IMG/VR virus record: IMGVR_UViG_3300010052_000170
Coordinates: 5,927-69,926 of that record
Strand: one strand, 5' to 3'
DNA: 64,000 nt
Source of the DNA: a virus
Lineage: Duplodnaviria > Caudoviricetes
Position numbers and translations under genes: made by a program. The notes under the pieces are model-generated. The model was given only the letters and a program-made list of their open reading frames with translations, had not been told where the DNA came from and did not search any database. Shown in pieces: positions 5,786-47,751 of this stretch. Each line of letters begins with the position of its first letter. Within the stretch, counting starts at the first letter, position 1.

Positions 5786-6048
5786 CAGGAGCGCCCCTCT
5801 ACCTTGGCGATGGCGTCACGAGCCGCATCAAGGGCAACTTGCTCGCCCCACGTCAGCCTGCGATTGCGGATTTGTGCGATTTCAAGCGCACATTCCTTGA
5901 GGGCGGAAAGCAGGTCCGGTGCTGCGGCGAAGAGCGCCGCGTACGCCTCAGGGTTGTCCATGTGCCGGCTGACAGTTGCGATGTGGTAGCTGCCAGATGC
6001 GCCAAGAACAGACGGTCCGATGACCTTGAGGGCTACGAACTGCATCAC
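5785..6048 (-). CDS. Hypothetical phage protein
   Basis: A.LFAAAPDLLSALK motif common in phage early genes. Confidence 0.65.
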   Translation of the reverse strand: MMQFVALKVIGPSVLGASGSYHIATVSRHMDNPEAYAALFAAAPDLLSALKECALEIAQIRNRRLTWGEQVALDAARDAIAKVEGRS

Positions 6049-6874: not shown

Positions 6875-7320
6875 CGCAGTGACGAAAATGATGCACTCTG
6901 CTATCAAAACCAGTTTAAAAATGCAAGCAGATACTGCCGCTGCGAGGCGCGAAATCCGCAATATCTCGTGTCTGCTCGGAGGTTCCCGGCGAGATATTGG
7001 GGCAGGGAGCGCTTCTGCGGCGGTCTTTTCGGGCGATTGCCCCGCCGCTCCGATCGTCCGGAGCATGAATCACCCTCAGGTTGCCTGTTCCCTCACGAAC
7101 TGGCCGGTCGGGACGGGTAGGCGCCGTCCGAATGCTTTGGATGCGAGCTGAGGTGTAAACTGCGCAGAATACCCTGAAGGTTCAGGACGGATTGGCCCAC
7201 CGGCGAGACGGGCAGCGCAGGATATCCCGACTTCATAGCATCCCGGCCCGCGTCATATGCGGCTACCGAAGCGGCGTGCCCTTCAGGGAGTACGTCTTGA
7301 TAGGGCGAAGTTTGTCCAGA

Positions 7321-35655: not shown

Positions 35656-36069
35656 ATGGCTTCGTTTGCTGCCCAGGTCGGATCGTGGGCAACCAAAGTT
35701 GAGGGCGCAATCGAGGCGGTATTCAAGGAGAGCGCTCAGGAACTGGTGAGCCAGTTGAACGAGCTCGTGCCGGTCGACACAGGCTTTCTCCGCGCCTCTC
35801 TGATGGCGTCCACCACGGCAATGCCACAGATGACCAGAGCGAACCCAGGCGTGCCGGTGTCGCAGGATCTCGGCGACATAGTCCTGGTAATCGCAGGTGC
35901 CGAAATCGGAGATACCATTTTCCTAGGCTACACCAGCAATTACGCCGGGCATGTACATTTCGGAACGCAAGGGCGCGCACCTCGGCCATGGGTGACGATG
36001 GTGGCGCAGCGGTGGATTGCGATCGTCGAGGCCAAGGCCGCAGAAGTGAAAGCCAGATTGGGGCTGTGA
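35656..36069 (+). CDS. HK97 gp10-like tail completion protein
   Basis: VPVDTGFLRASL...YAGHVHFGT...PRPWV. Confidence 0.8.
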   Translation: MASFAAQVGSWATKVEGAIEAVFKESAQELVSQLNELVPVDTGFLRASLMASTTAMPQMTRANPGVPVSQDLGDIVLVIAGAEIGDTIFLGYTSNYAGHVHFGTQGRAPRPWVTMVAQRWIAIVEAKAAEVKARLGL

Positions 36070-36280: not shown

Positions 36281-36694
36281 ATGCCATCCATCGAAACATC
36301 GATCTGGCTCGCTCTAAAGGCGAGGGGGGAGACACTTGTGCTATCGCCCGCGCTACCAATCGCCTGGCCGAACCTGAGCTTCACCAAGCCGGCGACGGGC
36401 TATTTGCGCGTCACCCACGTGCCGAACATGAACCGGCGGCTGTTCATTGGATCAACCGGTCCGCATCAGCGTCTTGGCCTCCTGCAGATCGACGTGTTGG
36501 GCAAGAAAAACGAGAACATAGCTGTTGCGGTTGAGGTGGCGGGGAAGGTCGCGGCGCACTTCCCAACCGATCTCCGGATGCGCTACGGCGACGTCACAGT
36601 TCGCGTCACCGCCGCGCCGACAGTCGCCCAGCCCATGGATGACGACACCCACGTCCTGGTGCCGGTGACGGTGCCCTATGAATGCTTCGCCTAG
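36281..36694 (+). CDS. Tail terminator protein
   Basis: IAWPN..F.KP...YLRVTHVPN...GLLQIDV...VTVPYE; precedes the tail tube. Confidence 0.75.
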   Translation: MPSIETSIWLALKARGETLVLSPALPIAWPNLSFTKPATGYLRVTHVPNMNRRLFIGSTGPHQRLGLLQIDVLGKKNENIAVAVEVAGKVAAHFPTDLRMRYGDVTVRVTAAPTVAQPMDDDTHVLVPVTVPYECFA

Positions 36695-38478: not shown

Positions 38479-38560
38479 TCTCTTTTTCAGTAACATTGGT
38501 TTCTGTCAGTGGCACTCTACATAGAGGCGTCTTATGCTTAGATCTCTTCGGGGGGATTCC

Positions 38561-40549
38561 ATGGCAGAGATGCATTACAAAGTTGAGGTGGAAAGCGACC
38601 ACATCAGAAAACTTACCAGTTCCAAGCCCGTTCCTGCCCTTGCGGAACTAGTTTGGAATTCGATGGACGCGGATTCAACTCGCGTAGACGTAGAGTTCGA
38701 TCGGTCTGAGCTCGGAATGCAAAGTATCTTCGTGCGGGACAATGGACACGGGATACCCTATGCGGAAGTGCCGAAACTCTTTGGCAAGCTTGGCGGTTCA
38801 TGGAAGGCCCACGGAAGTCGCTCAAAGACAAAATCGCGCATGTTGCACGGGAAAGAGGGCAAGGGACGCTTCAAAGCACTTGCTCTAGGTCGCGTCGCTG
38901 AGTGGCAAATTACATACCGCGAAGGAAGCAAGACGTTCGGGTACACGATCACGATTATCCGTGACAACTTAGTCGATGTTCGCGTCTCGGAGCTGACCGA
39001 AATTGACGCCGCGATAAAGCCTGGCGTCGAGGTGAAGATCACTGAATTGGATCGAGCCTTTAGGTCACTCGAACCCGAGCAATCGCTCTCTTCTCTCGCC
39101 CAGATATTCGCTTTGTATCTGACAGATTACTCGGACACCTCGCTTTTCGTTGACTATCAACGCGTCGATCCGTCGGCTTGGATCAAAAGCAGGTCAACGA
39201 TCTCCCTTGCGGCGATTGAAGAGGATGGGAACAGCTTCCCCGCCGAGGTTGAGTTGATAGAGTGGACCACCGCTTCTGAGCGTTGGCTTTTCCTCTGCGG
39301 GCCCGAAGGATTTCCATTCCATCGGATAAGTCCCCATTTCCATACGCCGGGCGTTCAGTTTTCCGCATATCTGAAATCTCCGTTTGTCAGCCATCTCCAG
39401 CAGCTTGGAATTTTGGACCTTGCCGAAATGAACATGTCGCTGCAGTCGGCTCTTGATGAAGCTGGGGGCAAAATAAAGCTCTTCTTCCAAGAACGAGATG
39501 CCCTTGCCGCTCGTACAGAAATCGATCAATGGAAAGCGGAGAGCGTTTATCCCTATCGAGAAGAACCTCGGACGACGGTAGAGCAGGCAGAGCGCAAGGT
39601 TTTTGAGATCGTCGCGCTCACCGTCAATCGGCACCTCCCAGAGTTTTCGGGCGCCAATCGTAAAACGAAGGCGTTTCAGTTGCGTATGCTCCGACAGGCC
39701 ATTGAGCGAGGCCCAGACGAACTTCAGCACATTCTTACAGAGGTTCTCGATCTCCCCGAGCGAAAGCAGCAGGAACTCTCGAAGTTGTTGGAAGAGGCTG
39801 ACTTAGCAAGTGTTATCAGCGCTTCAAAATTGGTGTCGGATCGCCTCAAATTTGTGCATGGGCTGGAGGCACTGCTCTTCGACCCGGACAGTCGGAAGCT
39901 CCTCAAGGAAAGGAGCCAACTCCATCGAATGATTGCGGAAAACAATACCTGGATTTTTGGCGAGGAATTCAATCTCACGGTTGACGATGAATCGCTGACT
40001 GAAGTTCTCAGAAAACACCGCAAGTTAGTTGGCGAAGATATTGTCATTGACCAACCTGTGAAGCGAATTGATGGAAAGGTCGGAATTGTCGACTTGATGC
40101 TCTCTCGGTCGGTCCCGCAAAATCACGCAGATGAGAGAGAGCATCTGGTGGTCGAATTGAAACGTCCGTCTGTGAAGGTTGGCGCAGACGAAATCACTCA
40201 GGTGAAAAAATACGCCTTTACGATCGCAGACGATGAACGATTTAGACATCTGAAGACACGGTGGAGCTTCTGGGTAATATCGAACGACCTTGATGCCTTC
40301 GCTCGTCGAGAGACAAGACATATGGGGAAACCCAAAGGCCAAGTGTTTCAGTCCGAGGACGGAAACATAGAGGTTTGGGTAAAGTCCTGGTCCGAAGTCT
40401 TAGCAGAGTGCAAGTCGCGGATGAAATTCGTCCAGGATCATTTGCAGGCAAATGTCGACAAGGAAAAGTCGCTTCGGTACCTCCAAAAAACCTACGACAA
40501 GTATCTGGCCGGGGTCGTGGAGATTGAAGCACCCGATGAGGCAGCCTGA
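38561..40549 (+). CDS. GHKL (MORC/HATPase_c_3-like) ATPase fused to a PD-(D/E)XK nuclease-like domain
   Basis: ELVWNSMDA, VRDNGHG, GKEGKGRF; C-terminal TWIFGEEF, IVDLML, LVVELKRP, EITQVKKYA. Confidence 0.85.
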   Translation: MAEMHYKVEVESDHIRKLTSSKPVPALAELVWNSMDADSTRVDVEFDRSELGMQSIFVRDNGHGIPYAEVPKLFGKLGGSWKAHGSRSKTKSRMLHGKEGKGRFKALALGRVAEWQITYREGSKTFGYTITIIRDNLVDVRVSELTEIDAAIKPGVEVKITELDRAFRSLEPEQSLSSLAQIFALYLTDYSDTSLFVDYQRVDPSAWIKSRSTISLAAIEEDGNSFPAEVELIEWTTASERWLFLCGPEGFPFHRISPHFHTPGVQFSAYLKSPFVSHLQQLGILDLAEMNMSLQSALDEAGGKIKLFFQERDALAARTEIDQWKAESVYPYREEPRTTVEQAERKVFEIVALTVNRHLPEFSGANRKTKAFQLRMLRQAIERGPDELQHILTEVLDLPERKQQELSKLLEEADLASVISASKLVSDRLKFVHGLEALLFDPDSRKLLKERSQLHRMIAENNTWIFGEEFNLTVDDESLTEVLRKHRKLVGEDIVIDQPVKRIDGKVGIVDLMLSRSVPQNHADEREHLVVELKRPSVKVGADEITQVKKYAFTIADDERFRHLKTRWSFWVISNDLDAFARRETRHMGKPKGQVFQSEDGNIEVWVKSWSEVLAECKSRMKFVQDHLQANVDKEKSLRYLQKTYDKYLAGVVEIEAPDEAA

Positions 40550-40617
40550 GGATAACGCGGTCCGCCTAATTGCCGGAGTCCAAACGGCTTGGATATGATC
40601 CTCGCGGGGTAGGGATC

Positions 40618-42045
40618 ATGACAGACGACATTTGGGCCGGGGATCATCTCAATCGCAAGGAAGATGCGCAGTTTCTTACTGCCTATCTGCTGCAGCGAAA
40701 CGAACTTGCGGTTGTTGTCGGCGACAAGGGCACTTCGATCAACGTGAGCGCACAATGGGGCGCCGGGAAGACGTTCTTTCTGACTAGGCTTGCCCGGCAA
40801 CTTCGAGAAGATGGCTATCGCGTTGCCGAGGTGAACGCCTGGCGAGACGATCATGCTGACGACCCGATTTTCGCGGTGATGTCTGCAGTGCTCAAGGCGC
40901 TCGGGAAGGGGACCAGGTCTGCGAAGGTTGGCAGAACGCTGCTCAACAGCGCAGGCAAGATTGCGGTGCGAGCGTTGAAGGGCGGAGTGAAGAAGGCTGC
41001 TGCGATCGTAATCGACAAAGACGATGTAGACGGCATCGCGGACGACCTCGCCAGGGTTTTTGCGGAAGCAGGAGAGGAGACCATCGGAGAATTTGCCGAC
41101 AAAGCACTGGAGCGCTTTGAAGACGGTCAGAAAGCAATTGATAATTTCCGTTCCGAATTGGCGAAAGGAGTGAAGGGGCAGAAGCCGCTGTTTGTCCTGG
41201 TCGACGAATTGGACCGCTGCAGGCCCACCTACGCGGTCTCCCTATTGGAGCGCATCAAGCACCTTTTTGACGTCCCCAATGTCATCTTCGTTTTTGGGAC
41301 GCACAGTGACCAGCTCACGCACACGATAAGGTCAGTTTATGGAATTGGCTTCGATGCCGATCGATATCTCCATCGCTTCTTCGACACCACGTATCAATTC
41401 GACAGCCCAAAAACTGTGAACTTCGTGCAGGCTAAATGGGATGCCCTTCAGTTTAAGGATGCGCGTTTCGTAGAGATACACGGCACCAGCCAGCAAGCCT
41501 GTATTGCTAAGATCGCCGACAACAAAAGGCTCTCGCTACGCGACATTGATCAATGCATGGACGCGCTTTGGACCATAACCGGTCAACTCGACCCGCGCGT
41601 ACCTGTACCTCTTTTGTATCTCTTCCCGCTGGTTGTTGCCTACCATCTGCGATTGACCGATGTATTCGAGTTTGGGGCGGGTGAACCGGCTCGGGCATCG
41701 CTGCGGCAAGATGAAATCCAAGCTTTTTATGACGGTTCGGAGATATACAGCCGACAGATTTACAGCCGCACATCTCAGAATCACATCTGGCAAACGATGT
41801 CTCTTTCGCCCTTGATTTCTGCGTTCCGGTCTCTGCTCGCCAACGGATTGAACCAAGATGTTGCGTCCGACAATCTCGGCTATTCATATGCAGAGCGCTA
41901 TCGAGACGCTGAATTCCGAATTCTTCACTCGAGCATGTCTCGAGGAGAAAAGGTCCCAACGATCCTAGAATCGTATGGGAGCATGATCAGACGGGTCGGG
42001 CGCATAGGAGCCACCCCTGAAAATGATGAAGGTGAGCGCCGCTAG
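40618..42045 (+). CDS. KAP-family P-loop NTPase
   Basis: AQWGAGKTFF (Walker A), VNAWRDDH, LFVLVDELDRCRPTYAVSLLERIKHLFDVPNVIFV, RYLHRFFD. Confidence 0.92.
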   Translation: MTDDIWAGDHLNRKEDAQFLTAYLLQRNELAVVVGDKGTSINVSAQWGAGKTFFLTRLARQLREDGYRVAEVNAWRDDHADDPIFAVMSAVLKALGKGTRSAKVGRTLLNSAGKIAVRALKGGVKKAAAIVIDKDDVDGIADDLARVFAEAGEETIGEFADKALERFEDGQKAIDNFRSELAKGVKGQKPLFVLVDELDRCRPTYAVSLLERIKHLFDVPNVIFVFGTHSDQLTHTIRSVYGIGFDADRYLHRFFDTTYQFDSPKTVNFVQAKWDALQFKDARFVEIHGTSQQACIAKIADNKRLSLRDIDQCMDALWTITGQLDPRVPVPLLYLFPLVVAYHLRLTDVFEFGAGEPARASLRQDEIQAFYDGSEIYSRQIYSRTSQNHIWQTMSLSPLISAFRSLLANGLNQDVASDNLGYSYAERYRDAEFRILHSSMSRGEKVPTILESYGSMIRRVGRIGATPENDEGERR

Positions 42046-42072
42046 CAGTGAATGTCACGCAAAACGTGAAAC

Positions 42073-42285
42073 TCAGTCCGAAGCTTTGAGATAACCATGG
42101 CTGATGAGCCAATCGCGGATGATGCGGCGGATCGCTTCAGAGCGGGGTGGTTTGTCCGTTTCATCCAGGGCGAAAGCGTCGATTGCGTCAGTGAGCTCCG
42201 GCTCCATGCGAACGCTAATATGTGGTTGCTTCCCGGTAGCCGGGCGGCCTCGTTTTTTAGGTGTTACATTTTTTGTTGACGGCAT
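42073..42285 (-). CDS. Ribbon-helix-helix (Arc/CopG-like) regulator
   Basis: KKRGRPATG...ISVRMEPEL..AID.F......RSEAIRRIIRDWL. Confidence 0.85.
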   Translation of the reverse strand: MPSTKNVTPKKRGRPATGKQPHISVRMEPELTDAIDAFALDETDKPPRSEAIRRIIRDWLISHGYLKASD

Positions 42286-42304
42286 ATTTTAGGTGTGCCA
42301 TAAA
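42255..42304 (+). promoter_or_regulatory. Sigma70-type promoter with direct repeats, driving the RAMP-like operon
   Basis: TTGACG (42276-81)-N17-CATAAA (42299-304); TTTTAGGTGT at 42255-64 and 42287-96. Confidence 0.65.
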
Positions 42305-42374
42305 AGTCGGGCCGAAGCAAGAGTACCAGTCTTGCAGCGGCCCTAACCGAAACGAACCTGTTAGCGAGGATCGA

Positions 42375-42593
42375 ATGGCTGCGAACAGCAGTACCATGCG
42401 CCGGCGTGCACGCTCAACTCATTCAAAACGCGAAGCAATCATTGTCGACCTGATGGCCCAGGCTGAAGGTGCCGGCAAAGCGCTTCGCGTTCTTTCGAAG
42501 GTCGTGGCCGACACGATGGAAGAGGTTCACGGACGCAAGTTCCGTGTCTGCATCGACCACGACACCCCGATGATTCTGATCCGGCTCGACTAA
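42375..42593 (+). CDS. Small hypothetical protein (HG..RV.IDH family)
   Basis: GAGGA RBS; resembles 7976-8215. Confidence 0.65.
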   Translation: MAANSSTMRRRARSTHSKREAIIVDLMAQAEGAGKALRVLSKVVADTMEEVHGRKFRVCIDHDTPMILIRLD

Positions 42594-42605
42594 GGGGAGG
42601 GACGG

Positions 42606-42914
42606 ATGAAACAGATCACTCGTCGCCTTTTTCTTCGCCAATCCGTCGCCGCCAGCGTTGTGGCTCCGGCCGTCGTCGCAGCTACCGGAGTGGTGGCCGA
42701 ACCGCGGCAGGTGCGAGATGTCATGGAAGAGCTTGAACGCTTGATCCAAAAGCAAACTGGTGTGGGCTGGTCGGTGATGCTAGCCGCCAACGAGACGATT
42801 ATCCTAGATGGGATGCCAAGACTGCCCATGGTCTGCTTCGCTCGAAGCTCGGACGGAACCCCGCAGTGGCAAGACAAATACGGCGTAGTCGAAACTGCGT
42901 CGGTGACCACCTGA
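42606..42914 (+). CDS. Small protein with twin-arginine-like N-terminus
   Basis: MKQITRRLFLRQSVAASVVAPAVVAA; GGGAGG RBS. Confidence 0.6.
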   Translation: MKQITRRLFLRQSVAASVVAPAVVAATGVVAEPRQVRDVMEELERLIQKQTGVGWSVMLAANETIILDGMPRLPMVCFARSSDGTPQWQDKYGVVETASVTT

Positions 42915-43043
42915 ACACCTGAATTCCGCCTCTGGCAGGGCGGTTTAGACGCGAAATTCGAGAGCTTCTTCGGCTCCCGGTTTCGCCAACGCGAACCCGT
43001 GCGTCTCGGGCCTGCCAGGGCCGGGATGCCGAAGGAGGCCATT

Positions 43044-43697
43044 ATGGCTACGAAGCAAGACGTCGGAATTGAACTGCCGGCCCTGAAAATCGGGCTGATG
43101 GAAGTGACCTTGATCGGCGACAGTCCGCTGATCGTCCATGCGTGGAGCCACAAGGCAAAGCGCGAAATGCTCGACAAACAGATGAAGAAGGCCAAGGGCG
43201 CCAAGGAGGCGAAAGACCCGAAGGCCGATTATGAGGCGAGCATGTATCGCTTGGCCGATGGTGGTTACGGCTTCCCCTCGGTGGGCTTCAAGGCCGCCGC
43301 AGTCACGGCAGGAACCAGCGTGGCAGGGTTGACCAAGATCGCGGCTCGGCAGGCTTTCCACGTTCTCGGTGAGGATGTGGACATCAAGGGTGCATTCGAA
43401 GGCTCGGTCTCTCGCGTCAACCTTGCCCGTATCGAAGGCGGAGATCCGCAGATGCGCGAAGACATGGTTCGCGTCGGCATGGGAACGGCAGACCTACGGT
43501 ACAGGGCTGAGTTCCCGAAATGGCATGCACGCGTTCTGGTTAGGTACAATCAGGGCGTCCTATCGGAAAGCCAGATCCTGAACCTGCTCAATACAGCTGG
43601 CTTCGCTGTCGGCGTAGGCGAGTGGCGGCCGGAAAAGGATGGGGCCTATGGGATGTTCCACGTTGCGACCGAAGCCGAACTGGAGACCTTGCAATGA
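43044..43697 (+). CDS. Cas7/RAMP-like protein (Vipr-like), putative RNA-guided effector
   Basis: EVTLIGDSPLIVH (RAMP beta1, like L...SPLHIG); YGFPSVGFKAA (like IPGSSLKGA); C-terminal G-loop AGFAVGVGEWRPEKDGAYGMFHV; AAGGAGG RBS; next to the GGY-NN array. Confidence 0.8.
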   Translation: MATKQDVGIELPALKIGLMEVTLIGDSPLIVHAWSHKAKREMLDKQMKKAKGAKEAKDPKADYEASMYRLADGGYGFPSVGFKAAAVTAGTSVAGLTKIAARQAFHVLGEDVDIKGAFEGSVSRVNLARIEGGDPQMREDMVRVGMGTADLRYRAEFPKWHARVLVRYNQGVLSESQILNLLNTAGFAVGVGEWRPEKDGAYGMFHVATEAELETLQ

Positions 43698-44209
43698 GGA
43701 TCGCCGGTTTCGAGTTTAGCGATGGTGCTCGGTTCCAGGCGGGAGCGCCGCACGACGCCAAGGCAGCGAAGGCCGTCGGCGACCATTTGGAGTTACTGAG
43801 GAAGCAGCACCAGAATGAGTTGACGCCGGAAGACGTCTTGGAAGACGCGAAGCACGACAACTCACCATTGCATCCGTACTTTGAATGGTCAGACAGTGCC
43901 GCTGCGCATCAGCACCGGCTCGCGCAAGCGCGAGGGTTAATCAGGAGCGTCGTCGCGATCTATGTCAGCGAGGATAAGCCGGCCGTGAGGACGAAGGCGT
44001 TCGTGCATATCGCTGAACCGTCTGCACCTCACTATCGAGAAGCATCGCACGCGATGAGCCAGCAGAAGACACGAAAGATGGTTCTTCAGCAGGCGTGGCG
44101 AGAGCTCCAAGCTTGGAAGTCCCGCTACAAACATCTGCAGGAATTTTCTGATCTTATCACCGTCATCGACGAGGTAGATCGGCATCTGCCAAAGGCCGCA
44201 AAGCATTAG
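43694..44209 (+). CDS. Accessory protein coupled to the RAMP-like gene
   Basis: ATGA overlap; LTPEDVLEDAKHDNSPLHPYFEWSDSAAAHQHRLAQARGLIRSV. Confidence 0.8.
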   Translation: MRIAGFEFSDGARFQAGAPHDAKAAKAVGDHLELLRKQHQNELTPEDVLEDAKHDNSPLHPYFEWSDSAAAHQHRLAQARGLIRSVVAIYVSEDKPAVRTKAFVHIAEPSAPHYREASHAMSQQKTRKMVLQQAWRELQAWKSRYKHLQEFSDLITVIDEVDRHLPKAAKH

Positions 44210-44217
44210 GGCTTCAA

Positions 44218-44590
44218 GGCAGGCGGGGTCTGGCATGTCCGGGTTCGGTGTGCCCTGGCGCGCCATGGTTAGGCAGGTGAAATGCGCGGAGCCGGATGCC
44301 CATCCGGCTGGCGAGGATCAAGGTAGGGCAGGCGTGGTAAGTCCAGGGAAGGTGGGACACGGCCGGGTAAGGTGCGGCAGGCTTGGCTAGGCGGGTTGCG
44401 GCTAGTCGCGGCACGGCAGGCAAGGCAAGCCTAGGTCCGATTTGGCAAGGTATGGCTTGGCTAGGCAGGCAAGGCACGGCGAGGTTCGGCGCGGTAAGCC
44501 TAGGTTCGGCGACGCATGTTATGGCAGGCGTGGTATGTTAAGCTAAGGCATCGTACGGTGAGGCCGGGCCTGCTCTGGCGAGGCAGGCAA
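44218..44590 (+). ncRNA. GGY-NN pentamer array (putative guide-RNA precursor, 7 units)
   Basis: Strict 5-nt periodicity; eight 4-nt GGCA breaks at 44218, 44272, 44327, 44376, 44415, 44464, 44523, 44582; begins 8 nt after the accessory stop and ends at a terminator. Confidence 0.85.
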
Positions 44591-44594
44591 ACGG

Positions 44595-44620
44595 GAGCGG
44601 TTCTTCGGAGCCGCTCTTTC
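44595..44620 (+). terminator. Terminator closing the array
   Basis: gagcggttc-TTCG-gagccgctc followed by tttc. Confidence 0.7.
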
Positions 44621-45218
44621 ATCTCCCGAACAGGCGTTGCAGCCACGACTTCCTGCTTGCTTCATGCTCCGTCTCCTCCCGGTGGGCAGCAACCACCTTT
44701 CCAACGTAGTCAACCTGAGGGCGGATGCCGAGTGCGCAAGCCTCGTTAGCGCAATCACCCGGCGGCAGCGTGTGTAGTTGTTCCGGCTCGATCTCTTGGT
44801 TGTTCAGCCTGACGCAGCCTGGACAGTCACCCCACGCCAACCTGATGTGAAATGTCACGTCATCTCCGAGATCGGTGCCGACCAACGCTTGCATTTGTCG
44901 ATGTCGAAAGTATGCGAAATTTGCATCCAGAACGGTGACTTCAATGCCCTTTATCGGGGCGGATAGTCCTTTCTCGGTTAGTGCGGATATAGCTTCATGC
45001 GACATGTCAGCATTTGCGCGAAGGCCAATGCTTTTCTTGGCTTCCCGGGGAAGGGGCTGCCCGGTCTGCCGAAACTGCCGCGCAATCTGGTGTGGATGAG
45101 TTCCTTCGTATTCCTCCATAAGAGCCGCAATTTGCTGGAAACACTCTGGCTTGAGGTATCCGAGGCGACGGCCTGATCGGTCGACGTGTTCAAGGAACTT
45201 GCTTCCATGGTCAGTCAT
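44619..45218 (-). CDS. Hypothetical moron
   Basis: 199 aa; CPGC and C...C..C motifs; ends SWLQRLFGR. Confidence 0.65.
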   Translation of the reverse strand: MTDHGSKFLEHVDRSGRRLGYLKPECFQQIAALMEEYEGTHPHQIARQFRQTGQPLPREAKKSIGLRANADMSHEAISALTEKGLSAPIKGIEVTVLDANFAYFRHRQMQALVGTDLGDDVTFHIRLAWGDCPGCVRLNNQEIEPEQLHTLPPGDCANEACALGIRPQVDYVGKVVAAHREETEHEASRKSWLQRLFGR

Positions 45219-45495
45219 GGAAGTTCTTTGTCATGTTCCGGCAAGATTTCTCGTTAAGCGGGCTGCCTTCCCGACTTTGGGCTTCGACGTAGGCAATCAT
45301 CTCGACAGACTTCTTGTCTCCAACGAGCCGGCTCGCCTCCTTCTTCGCCCACGCATAGGGCGCAAGATCCTTCAGAATAGGACCGCACTGGTAGGCGGTC
45401 GTTAGGCGAAAGATCGCCTTCTTAACGTCGCCATCACTCGGTTCAGCGTGGGCGACTGCCGACCAGAGACACAACGTCGAAACAAGCCAGCGCAT
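45211..45495 (-). CDS. Secreted small protein moron
   Basis: Signal peptide MRWLVSTLCLWSAVAHA; stop overlaps the start of 44619-45218. Confidence 0.6.
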   Translation of the reverse strand: MRWLVSTLCLWSAVAHAEPSDGDVKKAIFRLTTAYQCGPILKDLAPYAWAKKEASRLVGDKKSVEMIAYVEAQSREGSPLNEKSCRNMTKNFHD

Positions 45496-45558
45496 CCAAA
45501 ACCTCCCATTGAAAAATGGGCGGGACGATAGCGTTTGCCACCGTAAAAGGTAAAGCCC

Positions 45559-47751
45559 ATGGACGTCGCACAGCTTGGTCTTGAGGTCCGAAGCGAGCAG
45601 GTCGAACGCGGCACCTCGTCTTTGAATCGCTTTGCCGGCGCAGCCAAGCAGGCGGAGGCGGCAACAAAAGGGATCACGACTGGCGCTCGCGGTGCAGCTA
45701 GCGCTGTGCAGGCCGTGGCTGGTGCCAGCGACAATGCGGCAGGTGCTCTCAATCGTGAGGCTGGAGCTGCGCGGAATGCTTCCGCCGCCATGAAGGGGCA
45801 CGCCACCGCGGTCAATGACAATGCGAGGCGCATGGGAGGTAGCTTTTCTGGCCTAGCCGCTCAGTTTCAAGACATCGGGGTCACTGCTGCCGGTGGCATG
45901 AACCCCCTCATAATCGGCCTGCAGCAAGGCACACAGATTGCCGGTGCAATGGAAATGGCGATGCAAAGCGGCGCATCCGCGACTGGTGTATTTGGCGCCG
46001 CGCTAAAATCCCTCCTCTCGCCTGTCTCGCTCCTTTCGATCGGCCTTGCTGTGCTACTCGCCGCCGGCCTTCAGATGGTGAACTGGTCGAAGGCCGCTGC
46101 TGCCGTACTAGATGGGCTGGCCGGTATCCTGGAAGATATTGCGCCGTACGCCGTTGCCGCTGCGGCTGGGTTGGCGCTGATTTACGCGCCGGCCATCATC
46201 GGAGGCCTGACACTCCTTTCCGAGATGATCCTTGGGCTAACGGCAAGGCTCATCGGATTGGCTGCTGGCTTCGCTCTCGCCAACCCGGCCACTGCCTTCA
46301 TTGCCGGTGTCACAGCGGCAGTAGCGGCCGCGGTCATTTTCAGGGACGAATTGACCAGAATTCTGGGGGTGGATGTCGTTGGCGCTGCCAAGGCTGGGGC
46401 AAATTTTATCGTCAACAGCTTCGAAGCCGCCTTTTCAGATGTGAAGTTCATCTGGAACAATTTCGGCGACATGATGGGGGCCGCTGTTGTCGGCGGGGTC
46501 AACATTGCTATCCGTGCCATCGACGAACTTATCCAGAAAGCATCGGAAGGCATCGACTGGCTCATTAAGAAGGTCAACCCATACCTGGAAATGGGCGGCA
46601 TGGACCCACTCAGGGAAGTGGGCGGAAGCTTTTCGCTCAAGCCACTCGCCAACCCATACGCTGACCGTTTCGCCAAGGCCAACACCTCCCACGCTGCAGA
46701 AATCGCCGACATCATGAGCCAGGATCGGCTCGGCCAGTTTGGTACAGCGATTGCAAATCGCGCTTCGGCCGCGTCTGGCAAGTTGAAGGAACTGGCCGAT
46801 TGGGTTGGAAAGGTCGACGAAAAGACCGGCAAGAAGGCGGGTAAAAGCGAGGCCGAAAAATACTCATCGATCATCGACGGAGCGAACCGCCGCATAGCTT
46901 CGTTGCAGTCCGAATACGACGCGCTCGGCATGACCGAGTTCGCCGCCGCTAAACTAGCGTATCAGACAGACATGCTGAACGAGGCGCAGCGCAAGGGGAT
47001 CACCCTTACCGCGGCTCAGAAGGCTGAGATTTCTGATCTCGCAGGCCGCTTGGCTTCGCTTGAGATCGCCACGCGCGACGCCCGCGATGCGATGGACTTC
47101 GCGAAGGACATGACGAAGGGCTTCGTTTCGGATCTCCGCTCAGGCTTGGAGCAGGGAAAAGGCTTCTGGCAGAGCTTCGGCAATGCGGCGCTGAACGTCC
47201 TCGACAAGATCACAGACAAGTTGCTTGACGACTTGCTGAACGCCATCTTCAGGGTGAACTCGGCAGGGTCTTCTGGCGGCGGCGGTTTCTGGGGCATCCT
47301 CGGAAGCCTGTTCGGCCTTGGTGGGGGAGGTGGCAGCGGCCTCGGTGGTCTGACCTGGGATAGCTGGGCTAAAGGCGGTTACACCGGACCTGGAGGCAAG
47401 TACGAGCCTGCTGGCACGGTACATCGAGGCGAATATGTCTTCTCGGCCGCTGCAACCCGCATGATCGGCGTGGCCAACCTCGACCGTGCTCACAGGAGTG
47501 CTCGGCGCGGCTATGCCGAGGGCGGCTACGTCGACAACAGCACACCACGTCTGTTTGCCCCGGCAAACCGGAATGACGCTCAGCCAATCGTCTATTCGCC
47601 GACGATCCAGATCGACGCTCGTGGCGCAGAGAATGGTGACGACATCCGCCGTGCCGGCCAGGAGCTTCTGAAGCAGATGCGCGGCGAATTCTACAACAAC
47701 ACGAAGAAGGCGTTGCAGCTGCTCAAGATCAACACCGGAGGGCGGTTCTGA
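45559..47751 (+). CDS. Tape measure protein (730 aa)
   Basis: MDVAQLGLEVRS; AAQFQDIGVTAAGGMNP...LQQGTQI; Ala/Gly-rich; AKGGYTGPGGKYEPAGTVHRGEYVF. Confidence 0.92.
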   Translation: MDVAQLGLEVRSEQVERGTSSLNRFAGAAKQAEAATKGITTGARGAASAVQAVAGASDNAAGALNREAGAARNASAAMKGHATAVNDNARRMGGSFSGLAAQFQDIGVTAAGGMNPLIIGLQQGTQIAGAMEMAMQSGASATGVFGAALKSLLSPVSLLSIGLAVLLAAGLQMVNWSKAAAAVLDGLAGILEDIAPYAVAAAAGLALIYAPAIIGGLTLLSEMILGLTARLIGLAAGFALANPATAFIAGVTAAVAAAVIFRDELTRILGVDVVGAAKAGANFIVNSFEAAFSDVKFIWNNFGDMMGAAVVGGVNIAIRAIDELIQKASEGIDWLIKKVNPYLEMGGMDPLREVGGSFSLKPLANPYADRFAKANTSHAAEIADIMSQDRLGQFGTAIANRASAASGKLKELADWVGKVDEKTGKKAGKSEAEKYSSIIDGANRRIASLQSEYDALGMTEFAAAKLAYQTDMLNEAQRKGITLTAAQKAEISDLAGRLASLEIATRDARDAMDFAKDMTKGFVSDLRSGLEQGKGFWQSFGNAALNVLDKITDKLLDDLLNAIFRVNSAGSSGGGGFWGILGSLFGLGGGGGSGLGGLTWDSWAKGGYTGPGGKYEPAGTVHRGEYVFSAAATRMIGVANLDRAHRSARRGYAEGGYVDNSTPRLFAPANRNDAQPIVYSPTIQIDARGAENGDDIRRAGQELLKQMRGEFYNNTKKALQLLKINTGGRF

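Follow-up and report, generated by a model that had tools for sequence, protein, structure and literature searches.

A VIPR guide in a Rhizobiales phage probably directed at the accessory gene of its rivals, and a resident copy of that gene with synonymous codon switches at the guide-read site

Why would a phage carry a guide that spells a peptide of its own accessory gene, and how could such a phage avoid silencing itself? The question is raised by a locus in a 64,000-nt stretch of a Caudoviricetes record (IMGVR_UViG_3300010052_000170, positions 5,927 to 69,926), referred to here as the window. An earlier note, made from the sequence alone, had proposed that the first unit of a pentamer array (U1) is a guide against the homologous gene of rival phages, and that the resident gene copy was synonymously recoded to escape it. 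From the analysis given below we consider it likely that U1 targets the accessory gene (vap) of rivals while the resident TTA/AGG/AGC site spares the carrier from self-silencing.

The locus is a compact plus-strand operon at 43044-44622, composed of two genes, a 370-nt non-coding tract and a terminal GC-rich hairpin, and is located between the tail genes and the tape measure gene of a virus record (phage/prophage). Related loci were collected by vap-based searches of viral, genome and metagenome collections, which gave 167 loci (L001-L167), 99 of them with the vap site. The features of the operon are as follows.

43044-43697, plus strand: vipr, RAMP/Cas7-like effector of 217 aa (phrog_4652; homology to SUSP1 Vipr; Cas7-type model)
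43694-44209, plus strand: vap, accessory gene of 171 aa (phrog_15946); its start overlaps the vipr stop
43934-43963, plus strand: putative resident U1 target site GLIRSVVAIY with Leu TTA, Arg AGG and Ser AGC; 15/20 to the window U1, 16/20 to the sister allele
44215-44223, plus strand: degenerate pentamer CAAGG and a 4-nt CAGG register break 5' of U1 (parse of the array phase)
44224-44273, plus strand: U1, the putative anti-vap guide, ten YNNGG units, 15 nt after the vap stop and before the array leader
44274-44332, plus strand: CAGG break and conserved leader with the hairpin CCGGATG...CATCCGG, ending in GGTAGGGCAGG
44333-44377, plus strand: U2, 9 units; 18/18 on L001:3899-3924, frame 0, in a major tail protein gene
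44382-44416, plus strand: U3, 7 units; 14/14 on L008:2343-2362, in a tail-sheath-like DUF3383 gene
44421-44465, plus strand: U4, 9 units with AT-rich NN (parse of the array phase)
44470-44524, plus strand: U5, 11 units; best self match 17/22 at 46843, in frame, in the tape measure gene
44529-44583, plus strand: U6, 11 units; best self match 17/22 at 47197, in frame, in the tape measure gene
44594-44622, plus strand: GC-rich hairpin with a TTCG loop and a T run, read directly from the sequence

The vap gene is conserved, with 160-175 aa, 3' of vipr in 99 related loci, and the motif QARGLIR[SA]VVA[IV]Y is near-invariant in its family. Foldseek returned no match to Vap below E=0.9, VIA-align gave a C-terminal helical hairpin only (Z 5.5 or less), and the only Pfam match was a sub-threshold one to DUF3545. 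In one relative (L013:10001-10494) vap is interrupted after 87 codons and the tblastn match runs on to the gene end, which may represent a broken accessory gene beside an intact array. The leader element lies between U1 and U2 in the window and was also found 5' of the arrays in L001, L010, L011, L013, L015 and L122; a compensatory change in its stem (CCGRA/TYCGG) was seen by eye in L013. A second leader type, GTTAYGCCGAGAGTTC...AACCTCGGGCGC, is present in other relatives, and L015 has both types. From its sequence, the hairpin at 44594-44622 is the likely terminator of the vipr-vap-array transcript, and equivalent hairpins end the arrays of relatives. A promoter/terminator consensus scan of 42200-44800 gave nothing useful and did not list this hairpin.

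The Viral Interference Programmable Repeat (VIPR) was described in preprints from 2026 (10.64898/2026.04.26.720920, 10.64898/2026.04.26.720927, 10.64898/2026.10.15.759431). According to these papers, Vipr is a minimal RAMP protein (RRM core, G-loop, thumb) that makes a filament on vrRNAs built of GGY/NN pentamers; the NN bases alone pair with DNA, every third target base, mostly the codon wobble position, is skipped, and the result is transcriptional silencing of competing mobile elements. Judged from its sequence and a structure model, the operon at 43044-44622 is a VIPR system, made up of a Vipr RAMP protein, a putative Vap and a GGY/NN array that appears to be staggered. The single Vipr sequence matches PDB 36pp, 'SUSP1 Vipr protein', at E=3e-4 (phmmer), and a profile of 20 Vipr sequences (A2) matches the same entry at E=1.2e-7, with an alignment spanning the GVGEWRP/GVGDWRP loop. 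For the AF2 model of Vipr (pLDDT 82), the top Foldseek matches in PDB were all Csm3, Cmr4 or Cas7, with E ~1e-5. The array consists of YNNGG (GGY/NN) pentamers with variable NN, arranged in six units of 7-11, and relatives display the same grammar with other NN. Units in the window are linked by a 4-nt CAGG, by which the 5-nt register is moved one base. This agrees with the wording in the legend of fig. S18 of the first VIPR paper, where a staggered-array subtype is described in which neighbouring vrRNAs overlap by 1 nt. As to CRISPR-Cas features, no direct repeats besides the pentamers were found around the array, and the six ORFs scanned around the locus showed no Cas and no other significant Pfam match. 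The array was not detected by Tandem Repeats Finder, and an Rfam scan of 41000-46000 yielded just one sub-threshold chance match. Proteins 41-44% identical to the window's Vipr over >90% of its length, and annotated as hypothetical, were found in Gordonia and Mycobacterium phages (MW534375.1, KU963251.1, KJ025956.1 and others).

From 85 related arrays, 933 distinct guide windows of 8 units were taken and compared with sequences outside arrays. With a skip of 1 nt, perfect 16/16 matches were found for 25 of them, and with skips of 0, 2 and 3 for none; control guides with NN reversed, shuffled or swapped gave 0-1 perfect matches. The 1-nt skip rule is valid in the VIPR clade of the window. All targets examined are in frame 0, so that the skipped base is the codon wobble position. 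In every natural target found for guides of the 85 related arrays (L001-L167), the guide NN reads as the sense strand does, in codon frame 0; in the published VIPR clades targets are on both strands.

Read by this rule, the NN series of U1 is GG CT AT CG TC GT CT GC AT TA. The resident vap at 43934-43963 reads GGG TTA ATC AGG AGC GTC GTC GCG ATC TAT and encodes G-L-I-R-S-V-V-A-I-Y, which matches U1 at 15 of 20 bases on the sense strand, in frame 0 and in codon phase. Four of the five mismatches are silent (first position of Leu, first of Arg, first and second of Ser), and the fifth sets a Val GT against a guide CT. Our re-reading of the sequence agrees on this point with the earlier note, which had reported a decoded resident peptide, a 15/20 match and four silent mismatches out of five. 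It is the best U1 match in the 69.9-kb contig, and with five other places at 14/20 it stands only one above background when taken alone. Chance was ruled out as the origin of this self match, the site being the homologue of the site in the true targets. The match is real by homology, since the same codons in 99 vap homologues score 14-19/20 with the window U1; with the sister allele described next they score 15-20/20.

The relatives are matched better than the resident gene. The window U1 scores 19/20 on the vap of 14 loci, against 15/20 on its own, followed by 18/20 in 22 loci and 17/20 in 37 (59 more loci at 17-18/20), as would be expected if rivals' homologous genes were the targets. The sole universal mismatch across relatives is the guide CT against an invariant Val GTN. 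Perfect hits in homologues had been anticipated as well. The window allele has none, with 19/20 at best in the 167 loci and its exact pattern absent from IMG/VR, whereas they were found with the allele of L014, a Mesorhizobium sp. UC74_2 prophage with a Vap that shares 99% identity with the window's. U1 of L014 differs by one base (G at the position of window 44255, C in the window) and decodes exactly to the resident peptide G-L-I-R-S-V-V-A-I-Y. It matches 20/20 on 13 loci and 19/20 on 23, versus 16/20 for its own vap, where none of the four mismatches alters the protein. All matches of the two alleles fall in vap frame 0. The G allele is present in contigs of four independent metagenome studies, and four DNA runs contain the L014-type phage only; with G in the contigs of all four studies, C at 44255 is a rare and probably derived state. 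In the 6.3-Mb host genome of L014, vap occurs once, and every site differs from the L014 guide by more than 3 mismatches. At the level of sequence, these comparisons support the reading of U1 as an anti-rival guide beside a recoded resident copy.

A neutral explanation competes with this reading. It likewise holds that U1 targets rivals, and takes TTA/AGG/AGC for synonymous drift, or for recombination from a vap like those of L015 or L024, with nothing recoded to escape; in a variant, the guide could have been kept only in a genome already mismatched by chance. Codon usage bears on it in both directions. The earlier note had called TTA and AGG rare. In the contig, TTA makes up 1.5% of Leu codons and is indeed rare, AGG with 11% of Arg codons is merely uncommon, and AGC is ordinary with 26% of Ser codons. 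The alternative boxes account contig-wide for 16% (TTR), 17% (AGR) and 33% (AGY), which gives the triple switch a chance of ~0.9%, rising to ~7% under the codon usage of vap itself. In a set of 49-50 dereplicated homologues, TTR accounts for 12% at Leu82 and AGR for 18% at Arg84, and AGY is the Ser85 codon in 8 of ~27 Ser-bearing variants (~30%). These family-level frequencies are about equal to the contig-wide usage and display no enrichment at the site, as drift would predict. Arg box switching is frequent in the family, with the neighbouring QAR codon being AGR in half of the homologues, and the N-terminal part of the window Vap is L015-like, so that the gene is a mosaic. Moreover, the codons are switched in L015 (AGG AGC) and L024 (TTA AGA AGC), neither of which has a guide like U1. 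Part of the resident recoding may therefore be inherited, or may be an escape from the guides of other phages. TTA/AGG/AGC is nevertheless not standard at the site.

Several observations speak against neutrality. Outside the U1 carriers, TTA at Leu82 is restricted to two lineages (L024 and L052/L133), and the triple switch was found only in U1 carriers and L024. Of the different DNA versions of GLIRSVVAIY, the resident one is the most mismatched, with 4 mismatches versus at most 2 in all others, and the closest protein relatives of the resident Vap, L001 and L023, are perfect targets. The own site, with 15/20 in the window and 16/20 in L014, lies in the lowest 12% of the 99 loci. In Leu/Arg/Ser box states the window vap is the top outlier of 51 homologues, with 9 of 23 conserved positions switched versus 4.4 expected and a surprise score of 25.6 (17.3 for the runner-up). 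Because its box usage is the most unusual of these homologues, the recoding may extend beyond the U1 site. Low GC was ruled out as the cause of the T/A-starting codons, as GC3 of the window vap is at the family median.

The divergence of the own site is repeated in other guide-bearing lineages. When every array was scanned against every locus by seed-and-extend, four further independent lineages came to light that have first-slot guides against rival vipr or vap, whose own sites differ from the guide at 3-4 guide-read positions; a Leu or Arg box switch is present at the own site in three of the four, or in four of five lineages when U1 is counted. The guide of L122 is located in the pre-leader slot, 6 nt after the vap stop, and is aimed at the variant GLIRAVVAVY, with 20/20 on 26 loci. 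Its own site GLIKAVVALY scores 16/20 through a Leu TTG switch, R>K and V>L, and the Lys at the Arg position is the sole case among the listed site variants. In this second independent carrier of a same-site guide, the own site is again uniquely divergent. The guide of L057/L135/L136 is directed at vipr VGVGEWRP, with 18/18 on 62 loci and 15/18 on the own site (V>C and Arg CGA>AGA). L037 targets vipr EMLQKQM and has 13/16 at home, with a Leu TTG switch, E>Q and Q>E, while L024 targets vipr KQMKKAKGA, its own site of 16/20 differing by replacements only. The own sites of carriers stand at 75-83% match and many relatives at 95-100%. Among 99 loci, the own sites of the five lineages fall at percentiles of 12, 9, 32, 10 and 19%, with a combined p of only ~0.04 by Fisher's method. 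With three of the four other lineages showing box switches, we regard a purely neutral origin of the resident codons as unlikely, though by some distance the most serious of the competing explanations.

The position of these guides is also conserved. Six independent anti-VIPR guides (L014, L122, L024, L057, L037 and L111) are all the first unit after vap, 6-70 nt from its stop, and guides with other targets are the first unit in 4 of 14 cases and spread along the arrays (Fisher p ~0.01 after duplicate removal).

U1 might instead serve autoregulation, with a weakly bound Vipr-U1 filament in the phage's own vap dampening vap and the downstream array as negative feedback. The self match of 75-80% is in phase and near the published 80% threshold, and site and array belong to one transcription unit, with the array downstream. 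Matches in dozens of rival vap genes, however, are perfect or nearly so while the own copy is among the worst, and vipr-directed guides in other lineages show the same pattern, which leaves autoregulation quite improbable. Least probable of all is that U1 is a decaying, unexpressed relic, stranded before the true leader by loss of an upstream array, with the window allele drifted off target: it does precede a leader that opens the arrays of L001, L010, L011 and L013, L015 has a whole second array in its position and the window allele reaches 19/20 at best, but L014 and contigs from four studies retain U1 with its GG scaffolds intact, L122 holds a same-site guide in the equivalent slot that fits the second common variant of the target, and all six independent anti-VIPR guides are first-slot units.

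The reading of U1 as an anti-rival guide tolerated by a recoded resident site is further illustrated by the comparison of the window with L014, in which one block stands out.

43868-44333, plus strand: block nearly identical to the Mesorhizobium sp. UC74_2 prophage (L014), 2 differences in 466 nt by sliding identity

The block includes the recoded site, U1 and the leader hairpin. Outside it, vipr is ~68% identical between the two phages, the 5' part of vap is 82-86% identical and differs at wobble positions, and the arrays differ downstream of U2. By this pattern of identity the window and L014 are mosaic relatives. The block fits a weapon and an immune allele that travel together, in this one case. 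Our more general proposal is tentative, and we hold it with clearly less confidence than the reading of U1 itself: the segment 43868-44333 might be a linked weapon-plus-immunity cassette moving by recombination, six-fold codons a natural route of escape and self-immunity, and the first slot one dedicated to anti-VIPR guides. If the cassette reading were true, any carrier could disarm the VIPR operons of its relatives.

A mechanism can be outlined under the preferred reading. Vipr, a Cas7-like RAMP protein, would polymerise on vrRNAs of GGY/NN pentamers in which just NN pairs with DNA, and because every third target base is skipped, the guide would read codon positions 1-2. U1 would be transcribed with vap or just after it and then loaded with Vipr. 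It would be aimed at the near-invariant GLIR[S/A]VVA[I/V]Y site in the vap of related competing Rhizobiales phages, where the Vipr-U1 filament would bind the template strand at codons 81-90. In analogy to the roadblock described for VIPR, the filament would halt transcription of the remaining part of the rival vap and of the array behind it, and this polar effect on the rival array is presumed from the same analogy. The resident vap would keep the same ten residues by drawing the codons of Leu (TTA), Arg (AGG) and Ser (AGC) from their alternative boxes. Four of 20 guide contacts would be lost without protein change, so that the phage would not silence itself; the resident allele, 4-5 of 20 contacts short, would be spared. 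By inference, U1 is expressed, binding fails with 4-5 mismatches, and the codon switches go back to selection and are not just permissive. Self-immunity of L014 is an assumption, because its 16/20 equals the 80% match that the VIPR authors use as an informatic cut-off for calling targets; either this cut-off is generous, or mild self-repression is tolerated.

The VIPR system, its code and guides against other VIPR systems are published already, together with the finding that vrRNA-targeting vrRNAs have lower self-match than non-self scores. The operon resembles published VIPR in its effector homologous to SUSP1 Vipr, the GGY/NN guides, the wobble-aligned 1-nt skip, the two-gene phage-borne locus and the natural targets in competing phages. 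It differs in belonging to a Rhizobiales prophage clade, in the apparently staggered array with 4-nt CAGG breaks, in a Vap without recognised fold, and in that no pseudoknot tail was seen. It also differs in having a guide that decodes to the carrier's own Vap peptide, where nothing but the choice of codon box at Leu, Arg and Ser separates self from non-self. The VIPR authors argued that wobble skipping blocks synonymous escape and that a target escapes only by amino-acid changes. The resident site would be a silent route where 10.64898/2026.10.15.759431 argues that escape needs amino-acid changes, and the locus a natural counter-example to the claim of blocked synonymous escape. The VIPR-null phages of the same preprint, with solo vrRNAs against vipr, likewise aim at conserved wobble-aligned sites of rival VIPR systems. 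They dodge self-targeting by deletion of vipr-vap1, whereas the window phage keeps both genes and would rely on a resistant allele. Term searches of two of the three VIPR preprints found no mention of recoding, with 'synonymous' appearing only in the escape argument, and none of 'six-fold' in the one of them checked for it; in the third, structural, paper the terms mismatch, wobble, self and tolerance do not occur. Since the VIPR papers require amino-acid change and these searches returned no recoding, silent self-immunity via six-fold codons, the first-slot rule and the linked cassette, as read from the sequences, would be additions to a known system.

The need to spare guide-like DNA in the own genome is shared with CRISPR-Cas, where it is met by PAM or repeat-flank mismatch. 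In contrast to CRISPR-Cas, published VIPR work found no PAM requirement, the DNA spared in the window phage would be a functional homologue of the target gene and not the array, and protection would sit inside the protospacer-equivalent. By analogy only, poison-antidote modules and RNAi-resistant recoded transgenes also link a sequence-specific weapon to an insensitive allele, and in the latter synonymous recoding shields a gene from a nucleic-acid guide. Here no toxin is involved, the case is a natural one in a phage, and the linkage consists of one shared 466-nt block. If confirmed, the locus would show how a VIPR-positive phage attacks the VIPR operons of its relatives without autoimmunity. 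It would also provide a natural estimate of mismatch tolerance, from own sites at 75-83% match, and a simple design rule for guide-resistant alleles in VIPR-based tools.

Of the remaining units, U2 and U3 match the tail genes of L001 and L008 given above. The longer version of U3 in L014 matches 18/18 on the same DUF3383 site of L008. No match of U4 at >=85% was found in the 167 loci; its 29 exact IMG/VR matches were treated as chance, since the contigs concerned are unrelated, often AT-rich or from giant viruses, and are matched on either strand. The best self matches of U5 and U6 (46843-46874 and 47197-47228) are on the sense strand of the resident tape measure gene, with no better target in the 167 loci and no exact match in IMG/VR. 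Guides of relatives in turn match the window. The last unit of L014 matches 18/18 on the window's tail terminator gene (36644-36669), a guide of L016 matches 17/18 on its tail completion gene (35911-35936), and one of L105 matches 20/20 at 6902-6930 in a 97-aa ORF; a guide of L001 matches 18/18 on L014. All sites of this network are on the sense strand in frame 0, and the picture is one of dense mutual targeting among soil Rhizobiales prophages, aimed at tail genes and VIPR genes. Just upstream of the VIPR operon, at 38534-42045, the tail module contains an insertion of two genes, the first for a GHKL-type ATPase (HATPase_c_3, 671 aa) and the second for a KAP-family P-loop NTPase (491 aa), and this pair is a candidate for defence cargo.
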